This document shows, in pieces, positions 2,877 to 55,963 of a stretch of 64,000 nt of DNA (its first letter is position 1; each line of letters starts with the position of its first letter). The stretch lies in the NCBI GenBank assembly GCA_029256085.1, contig JAQSYP010000002.1, forward strand, positions 264,426 to 328,425, read 5' to 3'. The notes beneath the pieces are model-generated. The model had not been told where the DNA came from. It ran no database searches and worked only from the letters and a program-made list of their open reading frames with translations. The position numbers and the translations under genes are program-made. This DNA is from Bacillales bacterium (GTDB taxonomy: Bacteria > Bacillota > Bacilli > CAJFEE01).

Positions 2877-3296
2877 TTGTTTAATAAAATTTTACTTGCA
2901 TCTGATGGATCTCCACATTCATTAAGAGCAGCCGAGAAAGCAAAAGTTCTTTGTGAGAATAATCCTAATGCAGAAATTACTATAATTTATATTCTAGATT
3001 CATTAACTTCAAAGTCTGATGTCTTATCTGAAGGAAATATTGAAGATAGGGAAGTAATGAGAAAGCAGCGTTTATCTCAAACAGAGAAATTATTAGATAA
3101 TGCTAATATCAATTACTTAACTAAAATTATTAAAGGTGATCCTGGAACAAGTATAGTTTCCTATGCAAATGAAAATAATTTTGACATAGTAGTAATCGGA
3201 AGTCGTGGACTTAACGGTTTACAAGAAATGGTTCTTGGAAGCGTTAGTCATAAAGTAGCAAAGAGAGCAATTGCACCAGTCTTAATAGTAAAATAG
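2877..3296 (+). CDS. universal stress protein (UspA family)
   Basis: 139 aa. ILLASDGSPHSLRAAEKA at the N-terminus and DIVVIGSRGLNGLQEMVLGSVSHKV at the C-terminus are typical Usp ATP-binding motifs. Confidence 0.8.
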   Translation: MFNKILLASDGSPHSLRAAEKAKVLCENNPNAEITIIYILDSLTSKSDVLSEGNIEDREVMRKQRLSQTEKLLDNANINYLTKIIKGDPGTSIVSYANENNFDIVVIGSRGLNGLQEMVLGSVSHKVAKRAIAPVLIVK

Positions 3297-12916: not shown

Positions 12917-13455
12917 TTACAGTGAGAAAATATTTATTAAAAAATGGCAAGGAAGTATCTATTAGATTTTCTATACCCTCTGATGCTGAAAATATAATTT
13001 CATATATTAATAGAGTTGGTGGAGAAAGTAACTATCTTACTTTTGGAAAAAATCAATTCCCGCTAACTGTTGAAGATGAAATTAAACATATAGACTCGCA
13101 AGCTCAAAAGGAAAATTGTTGCTCAATCATTGCTGTAGTTGCTGGAGAAGTTATAAGCTGCGCTAATGTTTCGGCTTCCGATAAGGATAGAATTAAGCAT
13201 ATCGGTACAGTAGGTATTTCCGTACGAAAAGATTTCTGGGGCGTTGGTGTTGGAAAACTTGTAATGCACGAACTGATAGATTGGGCTAGGGAAGGTGGCA
13301 TTCTTAAAAAATTATGTTTGAAAGTTAGAGAAGATAACGTTGCTGCAATAGATTTATATGAAAAATTAGGCTTTGTAACGGTCGGCCTTCTTGTAAATGA
13401 TTTTTATATAGACCAAAAATATTATAATTGTATTTTAATGGAATTATTTTTATAA
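12913..13455 (+). CDS. GNAT family N-acetyltransferase
   Basis: VGVGKLVMHELIDWAREGGILKKLCLKVREDNVAAIDLYEKLGF is a GNAT motif A/B region. Confidence 0.75.
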   Translation: MITVRKYLLKNGKEVSIRFSIPSDAENIISYINRVGGESNYLTFGKNQFPLTVEDEIKHIDSQAQKENCCSIIAVVAGEVISCANVSASDKDRIKHIGTVGISVRKDFWGVGVGKLVMHELIDWAREGGILKKLCLKVREDNVAAIDLYEKLGFVTVGLLVNDFYIDQKYYNCILMELFL

Positions 13456-13462
13456 AATTTTT

Positions 13463-13580
13463 TCATATTCCATAATTTCTGCACAATTATATTTTATATT
13501 AAGTACATGAAAACCTTTCAAACCTTAAAACCCTAACCTTTTTTCTGTGGACTACCCGAAAACCACAGATTTTTTTTTGT
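13463..13580. repeat. interspersed ~105-bp repeat, copy A (bcr-type / MITE-like element of the B. cereus group)
   Basis: Shares ATATTTTCTGCACAATTATRTTTTATATTWAGTACATGAAAACCTTTCAWRCCTTAAAACCCTAACCTTTTTCTGTGGA…CCACAG with 16329–16436, 19337–19453 and 21441–21558. Ends in an inverted repeat (CTGTGGA…CCACAG). Confidence 0.7.
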
Positions 13581-15876: not shown

Positions 15877-16319
15877 TGAAAATAATTAAATGGACTACGG
15901 TGTCTATAGTTCTAATATCTATATTATTTATGGCAGTAAAAGCACTTGAATATAATAATCTATTAAAACTAACTTATAACCAAAGAGATATGGAAGATTT
16001 GACTAAGGTTGAATATCAACTTAAAATTCCATCCAGCGAACCAGCAAGTTATACAGATGAACAAGTTTTGAATGATAAAGAGAATTTTACTAAGCTACAA
16101 GATATTTTGCAAAACATACGTTGGGAAAACAACTGGAAGTGTTGTGTCGACGGAGATGTAAGAGCAAACTTAACTTTTAAAAATAAAGAAAAGATACTTT
16201 ACCATATTAATTTTGAATCAGACGGAGCAACGATTGCTTCTTTCGAAAATAAGAAAAAAACGAAGTTCTATAAAATGGATGAAAAAAGTTCCGATCAATT
16301 GAAAAAAATTTTCAATTAG
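15876..16319 (+). CDS. hypothetical membrane-anchored protein
   Basis: ATG overlaps the upstream TAA (TAATG coupling). N-terminal TM (MKIIKWTTVSIVLISILFMAV). Confidence 0.4.
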   Translation: MKIIKWTTVSIVLISILFMAVKALEYNNLLKLTYNQRDMEDLTKVEYQLKIPSSEPASYTDEQVLNDKENFTKLQDILQNIRWENNWKCCVDGDVRANLTFKNKEKILYHINFESDGATIASFENKKKTKFYKMDEKSSDQLKKIFN

Positions 16320-16328
16320 AATCTTTTT

Positions 16329-16436
16329 TGCATATTTTCTGCACAATTATGTTTTATATTAAGTACATGAAAACCTTTCATACCTTAAAACCCTAACCTT
16401 TTTCTGTGGATTCTCGAAACCCACAGATTTTTTTGT
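16329..16436. repeat. interspersed ~105-bp repeat, copy B
   Basis: Over 90% identical to copies A, C and D. Confidence 0.7.
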
Positions 16437-16440
16437 TCTC

Positions 16441-16545
16441 ATTCAAATTAAGGAAATCTTCTTTATCCTCTTGTGCAAAAACAATTACCTTTTATCCACC
16501 TTTTGGCATTGGAGCTCCATTGACAATAATTTCTACCAGACGAAA
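16441..16545 (-). pseudogene. relic fragment paralogous to the 219-aa gene at 21567–22226
   Basis: Minus-strand translation LVEIIVNGAPMPKGG*KVIVFAQEDKEDFLNLN aligns with LVAVTFNGIPLSKVGEKVILFAGEDKEDFYNLN of the intact gene, with an in-frame stop. The first 20 nt (GAAATCTTCTTTATCCTCT) are identical at DNA level. Truncated where repeat copy B begins. Confidence 0.55.
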
Positions 16546-16886
16546 TATTTTCATGTATTTTCATCTTTCCACTATTATTTTCAATAATTCCTATTTTGGT
16601 TATACACCTAGGTTCTACTAATCCAATCACATTTTCATTCAACCAAAAAAATAGAGTTTAAGTAATACACATTAGTAACGAGTCAAAATTAAGTGATATC
16701 CACAAACTTTTAAATTTATGTTTTTAATGAATTGCGAGTCCTGAGTAATTCCCTCTAAATGAACATCCCATTACTATTATCAAATCCAATAGTTTCATAG
16801 TAAAGTGAAATAATATTAAAAGAATTATTCTAGAGTGTAACTTTTAGATGATTTATCTGTCTATATAGGCAGAGAGGAGAACGCGC

Positions 16887-17386
16887 ATGTCAGACCCTAG
16901 GATTGAACTATATGAGACTTACAAAGATACTGTTTATTTGTATCTTTATCGGTCATCTCTAAATAAGCAAATAGCCGAAGATTTAACACATGATACTTTT
17001 TTAAGTGCCTTCCAATCTCTAGGTAAATTTAGAGGAGAGTCGTCACTGAAAACATGGTTAATCAAAATTGCAAGAAATAATTATATTAGCTTTTCCCAGA
17101 AGAAACAAAATAAGTTGAAATACATACCAAAGACATATATGAATACGAAACCAATCAACGTGATCATTATAAATGCCTCGATGAGAAGCTGTTAATACAA
17201 TTAGTTCTTGTTAAAATGCAAGAAAATTATCGAACATATATTATTTTGCGTGATGTTAACGGTTTAACTTATGAAGAAATATCTGTAGTAACTAATGAAA
17301 CGATTCATCAAGTTAAAGTTGGCCTTTACCGTGCTAGGAAAAAATTTCGAGAATTATATAAGGAAGTGAATGAAGAATGGAATTAG
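16887..17386 (+). pseudogene. ECF (sigma-70 family) RNA polymerase sigma factor, disrupted by a frameshift
   Basis: Region 2 (…DLTHDTFLSAFQSLGKFRGESSLKTWLIKIARNNYIS) is in frame 0 and stops at 17195. Region 4 (LDEKLLIQLVLVKMQENYRTYIILRDVNGLTYEEISVVTNETIHQVKVGLYRARKKF) continues in another frame to the TAG at 17384–17386. The shift maps to the A-tract near 17105–17115, consistent with a 1-nt deletion. Confidence 0.7.
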
Positions 17387-18828
17387 AACACGATGTAGTT
17401 AAAGACTTATACCCATTATATATTGAAAATGATTTGAGTCCATCCGTTAAAATGGCAGTCGATGAACATTTAAAAAAATGTGACCACTGTTCAAAAAATT
17501 ATAATAGCAGCGTAGGATTTTCTGAGAATTTAAAAGAGTTGGAAAAACCCGTAATTGCAAATAAGGTTGATGAAAAAATAATACTTAAAGTAAAGATAAA
17601 TCAATTAAAATACTTAACTATGTTTTTAGCTAGTATTATACTTACAATTTTAATTTTAGATTACAAAAATGACCGAGAAAAACTATTAACTAAATTTCAA
17701 GATTACTTTATCGCAGCCGACTTTTTACCAGATTCATTTGCTCCTATTAAAGACAACACACACAGCAACCTAGAATATTTAAAAGAAGACATTTTCCGTA
17801 TATTTGAGAAAAAAATAATTTTAGAAGAAAACTTAAATTACTTTGAAAAACGCGAACTGAATAATACAGAGTACCGTTTAACATTACATGATGATAGTTT
17901 TAATAAAATGCTCGAAATTATGGAAATGCGCTATGACCAGGGTTTATGGGATAAAACAGACGAGGCAGTATATCAAAAAACACAAAAATACTTCCTAGAT
18001 TTTAGCAAATTACTTGGTAAGCAAGAAAATAAGTTAAATCATGGTTATAGTTCCTATTTTGAAACACTAGATATTGTAGAAATGGATAAATTTTACAAAA
18101 AGATCAATTTATTAAGTGATAGTTATACTAGATTTCATAAACTTCCAGAACAATTACATCCTATCGGCAAATCAAAATTAAAGAAAATAATAGCAAGAAA
18201 ACTTAACGTAAGTGTCAGCGATGTAAAGATATTAAAAAATAGATTGAGTGAAATTCCCTTTAACTATGAATTTGTAATACAAGATAAATACAACGGTTGG
18301 ATAGACGGATATAATGGACAAATTACTACCGTAAATGGAAATCATGGTCTATCTGACGGTCAAGTAATGACAACTGATAATGCAAAGAAAAAAGCGCACG
18401 AACACCTCCAAAATATATATGGTGATAAAATTAGTTTCAACTTAGTTTCGTTAGGTTTTAACTATAATTATGAATTTTCCAACTCAGATTTTAAGGTACA
18501 TAGCTTTAGAGTAGTTCCAGTACTTAAAGGATACAAGTTCTATACACGATACAATGAAGGTACGATTATTCACATAGATTCAGATACTGGTAAGCTTAGA
18601 ATGTTAAGTCTTGATAATAGAATAGGAGATCTTAACGAATTCCCTAAAACTGACTTAACTATTAAAATATCTAAAGAAAAACTACAAAATAAAAATCTAA
18701 CCGACACAGTTATCATATACTCCGAACTAACAGGTAAATTCGAATTAGTATATATGAACCCTAGGCTGGAGGATTTTGAAAAAGAGAAATTTTATTCAAC
18801 AAAAGGAAATTTCAAACTTTCTTATTAG
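17377..18828 (+). CDS. anti-sigma factor with N-terminal zf-HC2 zinc finger, one TM segment and a large extracytoplasmic domain
   Basis: ATG overlaps the sigma stop (ATGGAATTAG). HLKKCDHC matches the H-x3-C-x2-C motif. TM segment YLTMFLASIILTILILDY. 483 aa. Confidence 0.7.
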   Translation: MELEHDVVKDLYPLYIENDLSPSVKMAVDEHLKKCDHCSKNYNSSVGFSENLKELEKPVIANKVDEKIILKVKINQLKYLTMFLASIILTILILDYKNDREKLLTKFQDYFIAADFLPDSFAPIKDNTHSNLEYLKEDIFRIFEKKIILEENLNYFEKRELNNTEYRLTLHDDSFNKMLEIMEMRYDQGLWDKTDEAVYQKTQKYFLDFSKLLGKQENKLNHGYSSYFETLDIVEMDKFYKKINLLSDSYTRFHKLPEQLHPIGKSKLKKIIARKLNVSVSDVKILKNRLSEIPFNYEFVIQDKYNGWIDGYNGQITTVNGNHGLSDGQVMTTDNAKKKAHEHLQNIYGDKISFNLVSLGFNYNYEFSNSDFKVHSFRVVPVLKGYKFYTRYNEGTIIHIDSDTGKLRMLSLDNRIGDLNEFPKTDLTIKISKEKLQNKNLTDTVIIYSELTGKFELVYMNPRLEDFEKEKFYSTKGNFKLSY

Positions 18829-18832
18829 CAAA

Positions 18833-18862
18833 AAAAGGACTCCTCAGAGTCCTTTTTAAGTT
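18833..18862 (+). terminator. rho-independent terminator
   Basis: AAAAAGGACTCCTCAGAGTCCTTTTT hairpin followed by a T-run. Confidence 0.65.
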
Positions 18863-18958: not shown

Positions 18959-19144
18959 TTATTTATCTATAACTCTGTAAGCATTCGTTGAATTTAAGTG
19001 GTTATCAAAAATCCACTGCTTTATTTCATCTTTTTCTCTTAATCTATCCATCTTTTTCTTATATTCTACTGGATCGTCAGGTTTACTCTTTCTTGTGTTT
19101 CCAGAAAATATAGCCTCTAAGATATCTTTGAAAAAATCCTCCAT
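18959..19144 (-). CDS. small hypothetical protein (61 aa)
   Basis: Short charged ORF; no recognisable motif. Confidence 0.3.
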   Translation of the reverse strand: MEDFFKDILEAIFSGNTRKSKPDDPVEYKKKMDRLREKDEIKQWIFDNHLNSTNAYRVIDK

Positions 19145-19336
19145 AAAATCACTCTCCCTATTATCCGTAACCTACAATTTTTCACTCTATCAATTGAAAC
19201 GTAAACGGTAACCAATAATTTCTATCTTAAATATCATCCAATGATTCTTTAAGAATAACTTGAGAAAGTAAAACCTTTCGTCTTTATCTATTATTCTTTC
19301 AAATTTTACCTCAATTTAAAAATTTTGATAAGGGAT

Positions 19337-19453
19337 TTTCCATATTTTCTGCACAATTATGTTTTATATTTAGTACATGAAAACCTTTCATACCTTAAAA
19401 CCCTAACCTTTTTCTGTGGATTCTCGAAACCCACAGTATTTTTTTTGCCTAAA
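19337..19453. repeat. interspersed ~105-bp repeat, copy C
   Basis: As copies A, B and D. Shares the extended 3' tail TATTTTTTTTGCCTAAA with copy D. Confidence 0.7.
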
Positions 19454-21412: not shown

Positions 21413-21440
21413 TTTTTGACCTCATAAAATTTTTATATGT

Positions 21441-21558
21441 TTTCCATATTTTCTGCACATTTATGTTTTATATTAAGTACATGAAAACCTTTCATGCCTT
21501 AAAACCCTAACCTTTTTCTGTGGATTCTCGAAACCACAGTATTTTTTTTGCCTAAAAT
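21441..21558. repeat. interspersed ~105-bp repeat, copy D
   Basis: As copies A–C. Confidence 0.7.
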
Positions 21559-21566
21559 CCACTTTT

Positions 21567-22226
21567 TTAATTATTTTCTATTTTGTTAATTAATTCAGCT
21601 AGTGACATTTTTAAATTATCATTTTCAGTGAATTCTATGTGTCTAAATACCTTATTGCTTTGTTCATCGATAATAAATTTACCTTGATTTGAACCTATAG
21701 GGTAATAAACTTTTTCATTCAAATTATAGAAATCTTCTTTATCCTCTCCGGCAAAAAGAATTACTTTTTCGCCAACCTTTGAAAGTGGAATCCCGTTAAA
21801 AGTTACAGCTACTAAATCAGATGACAATTTTACAGGTATGTTAAACTTATCACTGACATACTTTTGAATATTCCCTTTCGTGGTTATACCTCCAGCTTCA
21901 ACTACACTAATAACATCACCCTTTTTTATATTACTAGTAAAATTTTTTGTAACTCTTATTTTTAATTTAGAGAATGTATTTGTTTTAAAATCAAAGTATT
22001 CAATATCGAGTATTTTACCTTCGAAAATTGTATCAGAATTTAACTTTAATTCTGATACGGTATTATATGTTTTTACGGAATCCGCAAAAGCCGAAACAGT
22101 TTTTATATCGCTTAATTTTACTTTGTTGCTAATGTTTAGTATTTTAACTCTATCTTTCTGATAATATGTAAATATACCTATCACAATGATTGATAGAGAT
22201 ATAAAGCTGATTATATATTTTTTCAT
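21567..22226 (-). CDS. hypothetical signal-anchored extracytoplasmic protein (219 aa)
   Basis: N-terminal TM (MKKYIISFISLSIIVIGIFTYY). Intact paralog of the relic at 16441–16545. Confidence 0.5.
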   Translation of the reverse strand: MKKYIISFISLSIIVIGIFTYYQKDRVKILNISNKVKLSDIKTVSAFADSVKTYNTVSELKLNSDTIFEGKILDIEYFDFKTNTFSKLKIRVTKNFTSNIKKGDVISVVEAGGITTKGNIQKYVSDKFNIPVKLSSDLVAVTFNGIPLSKVGEKVILFAGEDKEDFYNLNEKVYYPIGSNQGKFIIDEQSNKVFRHIEFTENDNLKMSLAELINKIENN

Positions 22227-55048: not shown

Positions 55049-55363
55049 TTATGTCGTTATTTTTAATCCAATTACTGCTACTAAAATCATAGCTATGCAT
55101 AAAATCCGTTTCCAATCCTTTGCATCACCATAAAAAACCATTCCAACTATAGTGGCACCCACTGTCCCAATGCCTGTCCAAACCGCATAGGAAACTCCCA
55201 TGGGAAGGGTTTTCATCGCTAAACTTAAAAAACTAAAACTAAATACGAATCCAAGAACTAGCACCATGTATGACTGCAAGTTTTTGTCCTTGGCTACTTT
55301 ATTCATACCTGTAACACCTACAACTTCAAAGACTCCAGCAAGTATTAGATATACCCATCCCAT
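55049..55363 (-). CDS. SMR family multidrug efflux subunit (second of a heterodimeric pair)
   Basis: 104 aa, four TM segments, conserved membrane Glu (VFEVVGVTGMN). ATG overlaps the upstream stop (ATGA). Confidence 0.75.
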   Translation of the reverse strand: MGWVYLILAGVFEVVGVTGMNKVAKDKNLQSYMVLVLGFVFSFSFLSLAMKTLPMGVSYAVWTGIGTVGATIVGMVFYGDAKDWKRILCIAMILVAVIGLKITT

Positions 55364-55364
55364 T

Positions 55365-55706
55365 TTACGATGCACCTTCTTTATTACTAGTGTCTGTTGT
55401 AACAAGCTTTAACCCTACAACACCAGAAATCAATAAGATAATAAGTAATACTTTTGTAAAATTGAACGCTTCACCGAAAACGAGTATCTCCACGACAACA
55501 GTCCCTGCCGTTCCTATTCCTGTGAAAATTGCGTAAACAGTAGACACTGGCAAGGATTTTGTTGCCTTAATAAGAATAACAAAAGACATATATATAAGTA
55601 TTGCAGTTACAGTCCAAGCCAACCAGTTACTAGAATGCTTTAATCCTACTGCCCACAACATTTCTAATATTCCAGCAAATATGACCAATACCCAATCTCG
55701 GTTCAT
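55365..55706 (-). CDS. SMR family multidrug efflux subunit (first of a heterodimeric pair)
   Basis: 113 aa, four TM segments, conserved Glu (ILEMLWAVGLK). ATG preceded by GGGGGA. Confidence 0.75.
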   Translation of the reverse strand: MNRDWVLVIFAGILEMLWAVGLKHSSNWLAWTVTAILIYMSFVILIKATKSLPVSTVYAIFTGIGTAGTVVVEILVFGEAFNFTKVLLIILLISGVVGLKLVTTDTSNKEGAS

Positions 55707-55963
55707 TTCTGATTCCCCCGTTGTAATATTTTTATCACGTTCAAATGTCAATTCGCTTAATATTTATACTATTTACCTAACTTCGAGCAAATCATTAAAT
55801 AATATTATACTAGATTATACTACCAAATTGCAGGGATTCTTCTGATCCTCAAAACATTATTATTTGTTGAACTAAAGGTAAATTTGAAAAGGAATTGGTG
55901 ATAGATGAGTAGAATATTATTATGAAATAAAGTCGTTATTCACTAACATAGGGGAGATAATAA

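Follow-up and report, generated by a model that had tools for sequence, protein, structure and literature searches.

A Frameshifted ECF Sigma Factor Gene Upstream of an Intact Anti-Sigma Factor Gene in a Bacillales Metagenome-Assembled Genome

Operon Organization

The DNA analyzed here, referred to as the window, is an AT-rich stretch of 64 kb (GC content 31.7%) from a metagenome-assembled genome (MAG) deposited at NCBI as 'MAG: Bacillales bacterium', and is identical in sequence to contig Ga0456364_0000041 (475,827 bp) of JGI metagenome 3300042934. As read from the sequence, the module described below is most likely a two-gene, self-activating operon encoding an ECF sigma factor and its anti-sigma factor, in which the sigma gene is frameshifted (Table 1). 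Three coding sequences are annotated at the locus in GenBank (MDF2946444, MDF2946445 and MDF2946446), and a terminator-like hairpin closes the operon. The genes on either side of the sigma/anti-sigma pair are different in every genus among the orthologous loci compared, so the conserved unit is the two-gene operon. No paralogous sigma gene was found in the 64-kb window, and Rfam searches of the window and of the 13.3–21.9 kb region returned no relevant match.

Table 1. Coordinates of the operon features in the window.
Feature	Position	Strand	Basis
ECF-type promoter, presumably autoregulatory	16836..16863	+	Sole match in window; invariant blocks in 8 orthologous upstream regions
Promoter elements: -35 TGTAAC(T), 16-nt spacer, -10 TGTCTA	-35, 16836-16842; -10, 16858-16863	+	
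Shine-Dalgarno-like GAGAGGAG	16872..16879	+	Read from sequence; 7 nt 5′ of sigma ATG
Sigma gene 5′ part, original frame: sigma2 and start of linker, codons 1-77	16887..17116	+	Pfam PF04542; homologue alignment
Site of 1-nt deletion (T AA G TT G)	17111..17117	+	Codon alignment; insertion scan; conserved Glu
Sigma gene 3′ part, -1 frame: linker and sigma4, TAG at 17384-17386	17117..17386	+	Pfam PF08281; alignment to residues 78-166
Truncated ORF as translated, MDF2946444.1: 77 native and 25 out-of-frame residues, TAA	16887..17195	+	
Intact anti-sigma factor, 483 aa: zf-HC2, TM segment and extracytoplasmic region	17377..18828	+	
Intrinsic terminator-like hairpin and T-run, 4 nt past anti-sigma stop	18832..18857	+	

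Surrounding DNA

Four copies of an intergenic repeat of approximately 110–120 nt, 90–97% identical to one another, lie on the positive strand at 13454-13576, 16314-16434, 19324-19445 and 21428-21548, and the element is confined to this one 8-kb stretch of the window. Each copy comprises a small hairpin, a C/U-rich stretch (CCUUAAAACCCUAACCUUUUU), a terminator-like stem (CTGTGG...CCACAG) and a T-run. Copies 2 and 3 flank the sigma/anti-sigma module, and the Logan contig described below breaks within them. The element had no match in Rfam or in metagenome_contigs and shows no covariation among its four copies; candidate identities are a multicopy small-RNA gene and a MITE-like repeat.

In the gap 5′ of the sigma promoter, two fragments interrupted by stop codons derive from a paralogue of the gene at 21567-22226, which encodes 219 aa: one at 16438-16539 on the negative strand matches aa 138-171 of this protein at 65% identity (34 aa, E = 8e-11), and one at 16632-16703 on the positive strand matches aa 19-42 at 54% identity (24 aa, E = 2e-5). 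The first of these sits after repeat copy 2, as the intact gene sits after copy 4. On the basis of these alignments, the fragments are interpreted as a segmental duplication that has been rearranged and has decayed. A 61-aa ORF on the negative strand (18959-19144), situated 3′ of the operon terminator and before repeat copy 3, is predicted as a gene in each of the two assemblies and matches no Pfam or NCBIfam family.

The Sigma Gene Is Divided Between Two Reading Frames

The 102-aa ORF at the start of the operon carries a Sigma70_r2 domain (PF04542, E = 5e-14), while a 56-aa ORF at 17216..17386, in the -1 frame relative to the first, carries a Sigma70_r4_2 domain (PF08281, E = 4e-9). No stop codon interrupts the -1 frame between 17114 and its TAG codon, and frame 0 ends at a TAA at 17193-17195. 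When the addition of one base is used to repair the gene, a 166-aa ECF sigma factor results, and a tblastn search with this protein gives two abutting matches in separate frames, covering residues 1-78 and 77-166. The original prediction that sigma regions 2 and 4 sit in different frames is therefore borne out by the Pfam matches, the ORF map and the tblastn search.

The repaired protein has approximately 48 uninterrupted homologues of 163–190 aa, with 61–73% identity, coverage of up to 100% and a best E-value of 4.5e-68, from Mesobacillus, Cytobacillus, Niallia, Sutcliffiella, Aquibacillus and metagenomes. The split of the sigma gene is genuine in the deposited sequence, far above chance, and the two 'sigma' coding sequences in GenBank, MDF2946444 and MDF2946445, are halves of one pseudogene. 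Group 4 (ECF) sigma factors consist of sigma2 and sigma4 only, within approximately 160–200 aa, as the repaired 166-aa protein does; in the window these domains do not share one continuous ORF, as frame 0 stops between them. Judged from its sequence, the gene as encoded is a pseudogene of the ECF family and not a functional member.

The generic ECF model is the only sigma factor model whose cut-off the repaired protein exceeds (TIGR02937, 76.7 bits against 42.9). Its scores are below the cut-offs for SigM_subfam (TIGR02950, 108.9 vs. 147.95), SigX (NF007220, 61.1 vs. 260) and SigW (NF007223, 60.6 vs. 209), and far under those of the SigV, SigY and SigZ models. The window sigma belongs to a new, uncharacterized ECF subfamily, and the sigma/anti-sigma family was seen here only in Mesobacillus, Cytobacillus, Niallia, Sutcliffiella, Aquibacillus and relatives.

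Position of the Missing Base

The lesion was located by a codon alignment of the window with seven orthologous loci and by an exhaustive insertion scan, in which every base was inserted at every position and the products were scored with an HMM of the orthologues. Single-base insertions that restore the ORF fall only between 17111 and 17194, and the highest scores, 278–275 bits, are obtained at 17111-17120, compared with 248 bits at the far end of the interval. The codon alignment places the gap immediately 5′ of an invariant Glu codon, GAA at 17117-17119: the Aquibacillus sequence is AAA CAA TTA GAA ATA CAT ACA (K Q L E I H T), compared with AAT AAG TT- GAA ATA CAT ACC in the window. Because this Glu is present in 13/13 aligned homologues, the missing base is favored at 17111-17117. 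The comparison with orthologues that had been proposed as a check gives the same answer, as the gene is uninterrupted in all seven loci and has one base more at this position. The coordinates originally given for a 1-nt deletion (~17100–17118) were about right; its placement in an A-tract was wrong, as an extra A in the AAAA at 17107-17110 yields CAA AAA TAA, a stop codon, and repair at that tract is ruled out.

The nature of the site also bears on whether the frameshift could be a phase-variable (contingency) switch, as had been suggested, with slipped-strand mispairing in a homopolymer turning sigma factor production on or off. In favor of this, a 1-nt indel lies within an A/T-rich stretch; however, the longest run in the restorable interval near the junction is AA, TT or AAA (at most 3 nt), no tract of more than 4 nt is found nearby, the A4 tract is unable to restore the frame, and the orthologues have no tract at the position of the deletion. 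Contingency tracts are typically at least 7 nt long. With no long simple-sequence tract at the indel and A4 excluded by the insertion scan, a phase-variable switch is scarcely credible.

The frame could instead be restored during translation, by programmed or leaky -1 ribosomal frameshifting at a site such as A CCA AAG (17126-17132), so that some full-length sigma factor would be made and positive autoregulation could amplify it. The shift needed is indeed -1, and an A-preceded Lys AAG codon lies within the permissive interval, in the variable linker. However, the canonical X XXY YYZ heptamer is absent from 17111-17194, leaving only the weak A CCA AAG, and the positive-strand sequence further downstream showed no stimulatory hairpin. 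The orthologues encode one uninterrupted ORF, so recoding is not conserved, and the combination of a heptamer and a conserved frameshift that marks programmed -1 frameshifting of the dnaX or IS3 type is missing here; such recoding is very improbable.

A two-piece sigma factor, in which the 102-aa sigma2 protein and the 56-aa sigma4 fragment (from ATG 17216) assemble on RNA polymerase in the manner of SigO-RsoA, is equally hard to sustain. Both fragments are annotated as coding sequences, and ATG 17216 lies 21 nt past the frame-0 TAA, near enough for termination-reinitiation. Against this, no Shine-Dalgarno sequence precedes 17216, and the 56-aa ORF begins within region 4, without approximately 35 linker residues and the first sigma4 helix. 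Only the window genome has this arrangement, the approximately 48 relatives being single-chain proteins. In a more elaborate proposal, a little full-length sigma would be made by leaky -1 slippage (at A CCA AAG) or by the sigma2 fragment joining a reinitiated sigma4 fragment, and positive autoregulation would amplify it into a tight stochastic on/off ECF switch, restrained by an anti-sigma factor whose YpeB-like PepSY plus helical-bundle sensor domain would be of a previously undescribed kind; this has at best a slim chance of being correct.

A second frameshifted member of the sigma family was found in a Mesobacillus-like Logan contig of 1288 bp (P0050). Its frame is lost elsewhere, after ...WLFKIAR at codon 63 of the sigma gene, which is residue 76 of the 176-aa called protein on account of a 13-residue N-terminal extension, and the out-of-frame sequence runs on to 176 aa. 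This may be a raw-assembly error or an independent pseudogene. The P0050 and window frameshifts lie at different places, and there is no recurrent site.

Genuine Deletion or Artefact

The frameshift is probably, at odds of about two in three, a genuine and recent loss-of-function deletion, which would silence a presumably autoregulated ECF module belonging to an uncharacterized Bacillaceae subfamily. A sequencing or assembly artefact, whereby the gene is intact in the organism and one base was lost in the consensus, is a less likely alternative. The Logan assembly of SRR35185192 contains a 3,005-bp contig that is identical to the window at 3005/3005 nt, deletion included, and that ends within the flanking repeats, as expected from k-mer assembly of accurate reads. 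That a separate assembler gives the same sequence, base for base, over 3 kb argues against an artefact; however, the source is a MAG and the Logan contig may stem from the same reads, in which case a systematic read error would be possible.

The remainder of the window offers a measure of sequence accuracy. The 60 ORFs of at least 137 aa, which cover 45.5 kb of the window, are all open, and contain 144 A/T runs of at least 6 nt, including 35 of 7–8 nt. Among 26 neighboring ORFs scanned against Pfam, 18 matched a family, with no gene split between adjacent ORFs, and the other eight were without family; the whole-window ORF map likewise revealed no further split gene. The overlapping genes at 55049-55405 and 55365-55751 on the negative strand both encode a full Small Multidrug Resistance domain, and on this evidence they resemble a paired SMR transporter and not a split gene. 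The absence of any other split gene in 64 kb despite so many long A/T runs speaks against an artefact, as do the local runs of no more than 3 nt and the exclusion of the A4 tract as the site. The homopolymer sequencing error that had been considered is disfavored on the same grounds, since the site is not a real homopolymer, although repair in the AA at 17112-17113 or the AAA at 17118-17120 scores nearly equal to the best.

No further lesion was found in the sigma or the anti-sigma gene, and the sigma is as conserved as its intact orthologues, from which it follows that a genuine deletion would be evolutionarily recent. The window sigma deviates at 5/75 columns that do not vary among the other seven orthologues, the same figure as for the intact L005, L007 and L009. 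The lineage is faster in sigma and anti-sigma alike and not in sigma alone (Fisher p = 0.09–0.83), and its sigma/anti-sigma identity ratios are in line with those of other pairs (74/49 vs. 73/56 and 70/50). Relaxed selection specific to the sigma gene was considered and rejected, as neither relative-rate nor leave-one-out tests revealed an excess relative to the intact orthologues. The total lack of secondary decay suits an artefact as well as a recent mutation: there is a single lesion, and both halves are otherwise perfectly conserved, without extra private substitutions relative to intact orthologues. Local erosion of the DNA is nonetheless real, as the stop-containing paralogue fragments at 16438-16703 demonstrate, in favor of a genuine deletion.

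An intact allele from the same species was not found among 5.8 billion proteins, and look-ups of the 102-aa and 483-aa proteins led to nothing other than the JGI contig and a single Logan contig. An exact-pattern scan of metagenome_contigs for alleles gave no matches, not even to the source contig, so the sample lies outside that collection, and a literature search on the sample identifiers found nothing. As the species is represented by a single genome, neither fixation of the deletion nor an ancestral intact allele is demonstrable. Of the explanations originally offered for the frameshift, a pseudogene is the best supported, with a single lesion, two assemblies that agree and no intact allele on record.

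The Anti-Sigma Factor

The 483-aa product of the second gene has an N-terminal zf-HC2 domain (PF13490, E = 3e-6, 27.6 bits against a cut-off of 22.2), and the residues H31-x3-C35-x2-C38 are invariant in 31/31 homologues, giving it the N-terminal H-x3-C-x2-C motif within an anti-sigma domain that characterizes zinc-binding anti-sigma (ZAS) proteins. One hydrophobic segment (residues ~79–94) is followed by a large C-terminal domain. The protein has 45 homologues of 472–504 aa, and those named to organism are nearly all from Bacillaceae-type taxa. The description given at the outset, of an intact 483-aa anti-sigma factor with an ATG over the sigma stop, an HxxxCxxC finger, one TM segment and a large external domain, holds in full, given the zf-HC2 match and the 31 homologues. 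A scan of genome_contigs with the anti-sigma factor retrieved Aquibacillus halophilus only.

In the AlphaFold model (pLDDT 81.6), N-terminal helices (residues 1–43) are predicted to be followed by a disordered linker, a long helix holding the hydrophobic segment, an extracytoplasmic helical bundle (~118–275) and tandem alpha/beta modules (~283–474). The ectodomain matches no Pfam or NCBIfam family, including the PepSY sequence family, and Foldseek gave no match for the anti-sigma factor in the PDB. The modeled ectodomain appears to resemble the PepSY repeats of YpeB together with a 4-helix-bundle sensor. A literature search on PepSY anti-sigma factors found nothing relevant.

The window anti-sigma factor departs from its orthologues at 25/96 sites (26%) that are invariant in L001 and L004-L009, compared with 4–16.5% for the others in a leave-one-out analysis. 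There is no matching excess in the sigma, and a long branch or relaxed constraint may account for the excess in the anti-sigma factor. In Bacillus tianshenii, a truncated 284-aa copy and a full 487-aa copy of the anti-sigma factor are found (proteins P0115 and P0084); the full copy is named '3-demethylubiquinone-9 3-methyltransferase (glyoxalase superfamily)' at NCBI, an evident mis-annotation.

Promoter, Translation Signals and Proposed Consequence

The sequence TGTAAC-N16-TGTCTA upstream of the sigma gene occurs once in 64 kb, where 0.04 matches are expected. When the 90 nt 5′ of the sigma gene are aligned for eight orthologous operons, invariance is confined to two blocks, TGTAACT and TGTCT, at a fixed spacing (N15), and each fetched locus has exactly one match to the promoter, located approximately 22–30 nt 5′ of the sigma ATG. 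This conservation strongly supports TGTAACT-N15-TGTCT as a clear phylogenetic footprint of a putative ECF-type promoter. The original call of a sigma-X-type ECF promoter stands, with the promoter recurring at 8/8 orthologous loci. The sigma itself is not an orthologue of SigX, as it passes only the generic ECF model; 'SigX-type' fits the -35 hexamer, not the orthology. A search for additional TGTAAC-N15-17-TGTCT(A) sites marking members of a regulon found none besides the operon promoter, in the window or in the fetched loci.

A purine-rich GAGAGGGG block is found in the orthologues at the same place as the GAGAGGAG Shine-Dalgarno sequence of the window. The sigma and anti-sigma genes share 10 nt at the sigma stop and the anti-sigma ATG (ATGGAATTAG), with the same geometry in the closest orthologue, L004, and an AAGGAAG motif at 17360-17366 precedes the anti-sigma start. 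Apart from the missing base in the sigma gene, the operon is intact in its promoter, ribosome-binding site, anti-sigma gene and terminator.

If the deletion is genuine, the loss of one base in the sigma2-sigma4 linker would lead to translation of a 102-aa product consisting of sigma2 and 25 junk residues, without sigma4. By the established mechanism of ECF sigma factors, such a product would neither read the -35 element nor dock on the beta-flap, and the operon, with its promoter of the self-recognized type, would fall to basal expression. Because the sigma would be lost and the promoter is presumably read by its own sigma, transcription of the anti-sigma gene should also shut down. In addition, as ribosomes would now halt 182 nt 5′ of the anti-sigma start, translational coupling would be lost and the AAGGAAG motif alone would remain. 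We infer that the whole module is effectively silent and that no active 'orphan' anti-sigma factor is left. The suggestion of a pseudogene leaving an orphan anti-sigma factor is accordingly retained for the pseudogene, with its single lesion in two assemblies, and not for an active orphan.

The frameshift itself is of minor weight: it probably marks one more ordinary pseudogene with a single lesion, and less likely reflects a consensus error in a MAG. The analysis corrects the annotation, as MDF2946444 and MDF2946445 belong to one gene, and defines an uncharacterized ECF subfamily with the promoter motif TGTAACT-N15-TGTCTA, whose conserved anti-sigma factor of approximately 480 aa could inform experimental work in Mesobacillus or Cytobacillus species that can be cultured.

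Comparison with Known Systems

The locus resembles other single-lesion bacterial pseudogenes, such as the frameshifted regulators of natural isolates, in having one indel, a sequence that is otherwise conserved and an intact partner gene, and there is nothing distinctive about it in this respect. A sigma function in two pieces in a relative of Bacillus also recalls SigO-RsoA and the skin-interrupted sigK. Those are conserved, dedicated arrangements, however, with separate genes that have their own signals or a 48-kb excisable element, whereas the window sigma lacks one base, and in the window genome only.

The putative likeness of the anti-sigma ectodomain to YpeB, a spore germination protein with C-terminal tandem PepSY domains (PDB 5boi), is accompanied by only 15% sequence identity and by no PepSY match in Pfam. 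Unlike in YpeB, the modules in the anti-sigma factor form part of one protein with a zf-HC2 anti-sigma domain and a helical bundle.

The closest parallels are with the ECF systems of Bacillus subtilis, SigM-YhdL-YhdK, SigW-RsiW and SigX-RsiX, which share with the window module a sigma factor of approximately 165 aa with sigma2 and sigma4 only. As in the B. subtilis ECF operons, the anti-sigma gene is presumably co-transcribed with the sigma gene, with a start/stop overlap, and an 'AAC' -35 element and a 'GTC'-containing -10 element, 16 nt apart, lie 5′ of the module's own operon; like RsiW, the anti-sigma factor has an N-terminal HxxxCxxC motif. The window pair differs from those of B. subtilis in its much larger anti-sigma factor (483 aa), with an ectodomain without family, in a sigma that falls below every named equivalog cut-off, and in that its sigma gene is broken. 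By analogy with these systems, the sigma/anti-sigma pair of this family would be expected to work like a classical ECF/ZAS pair.
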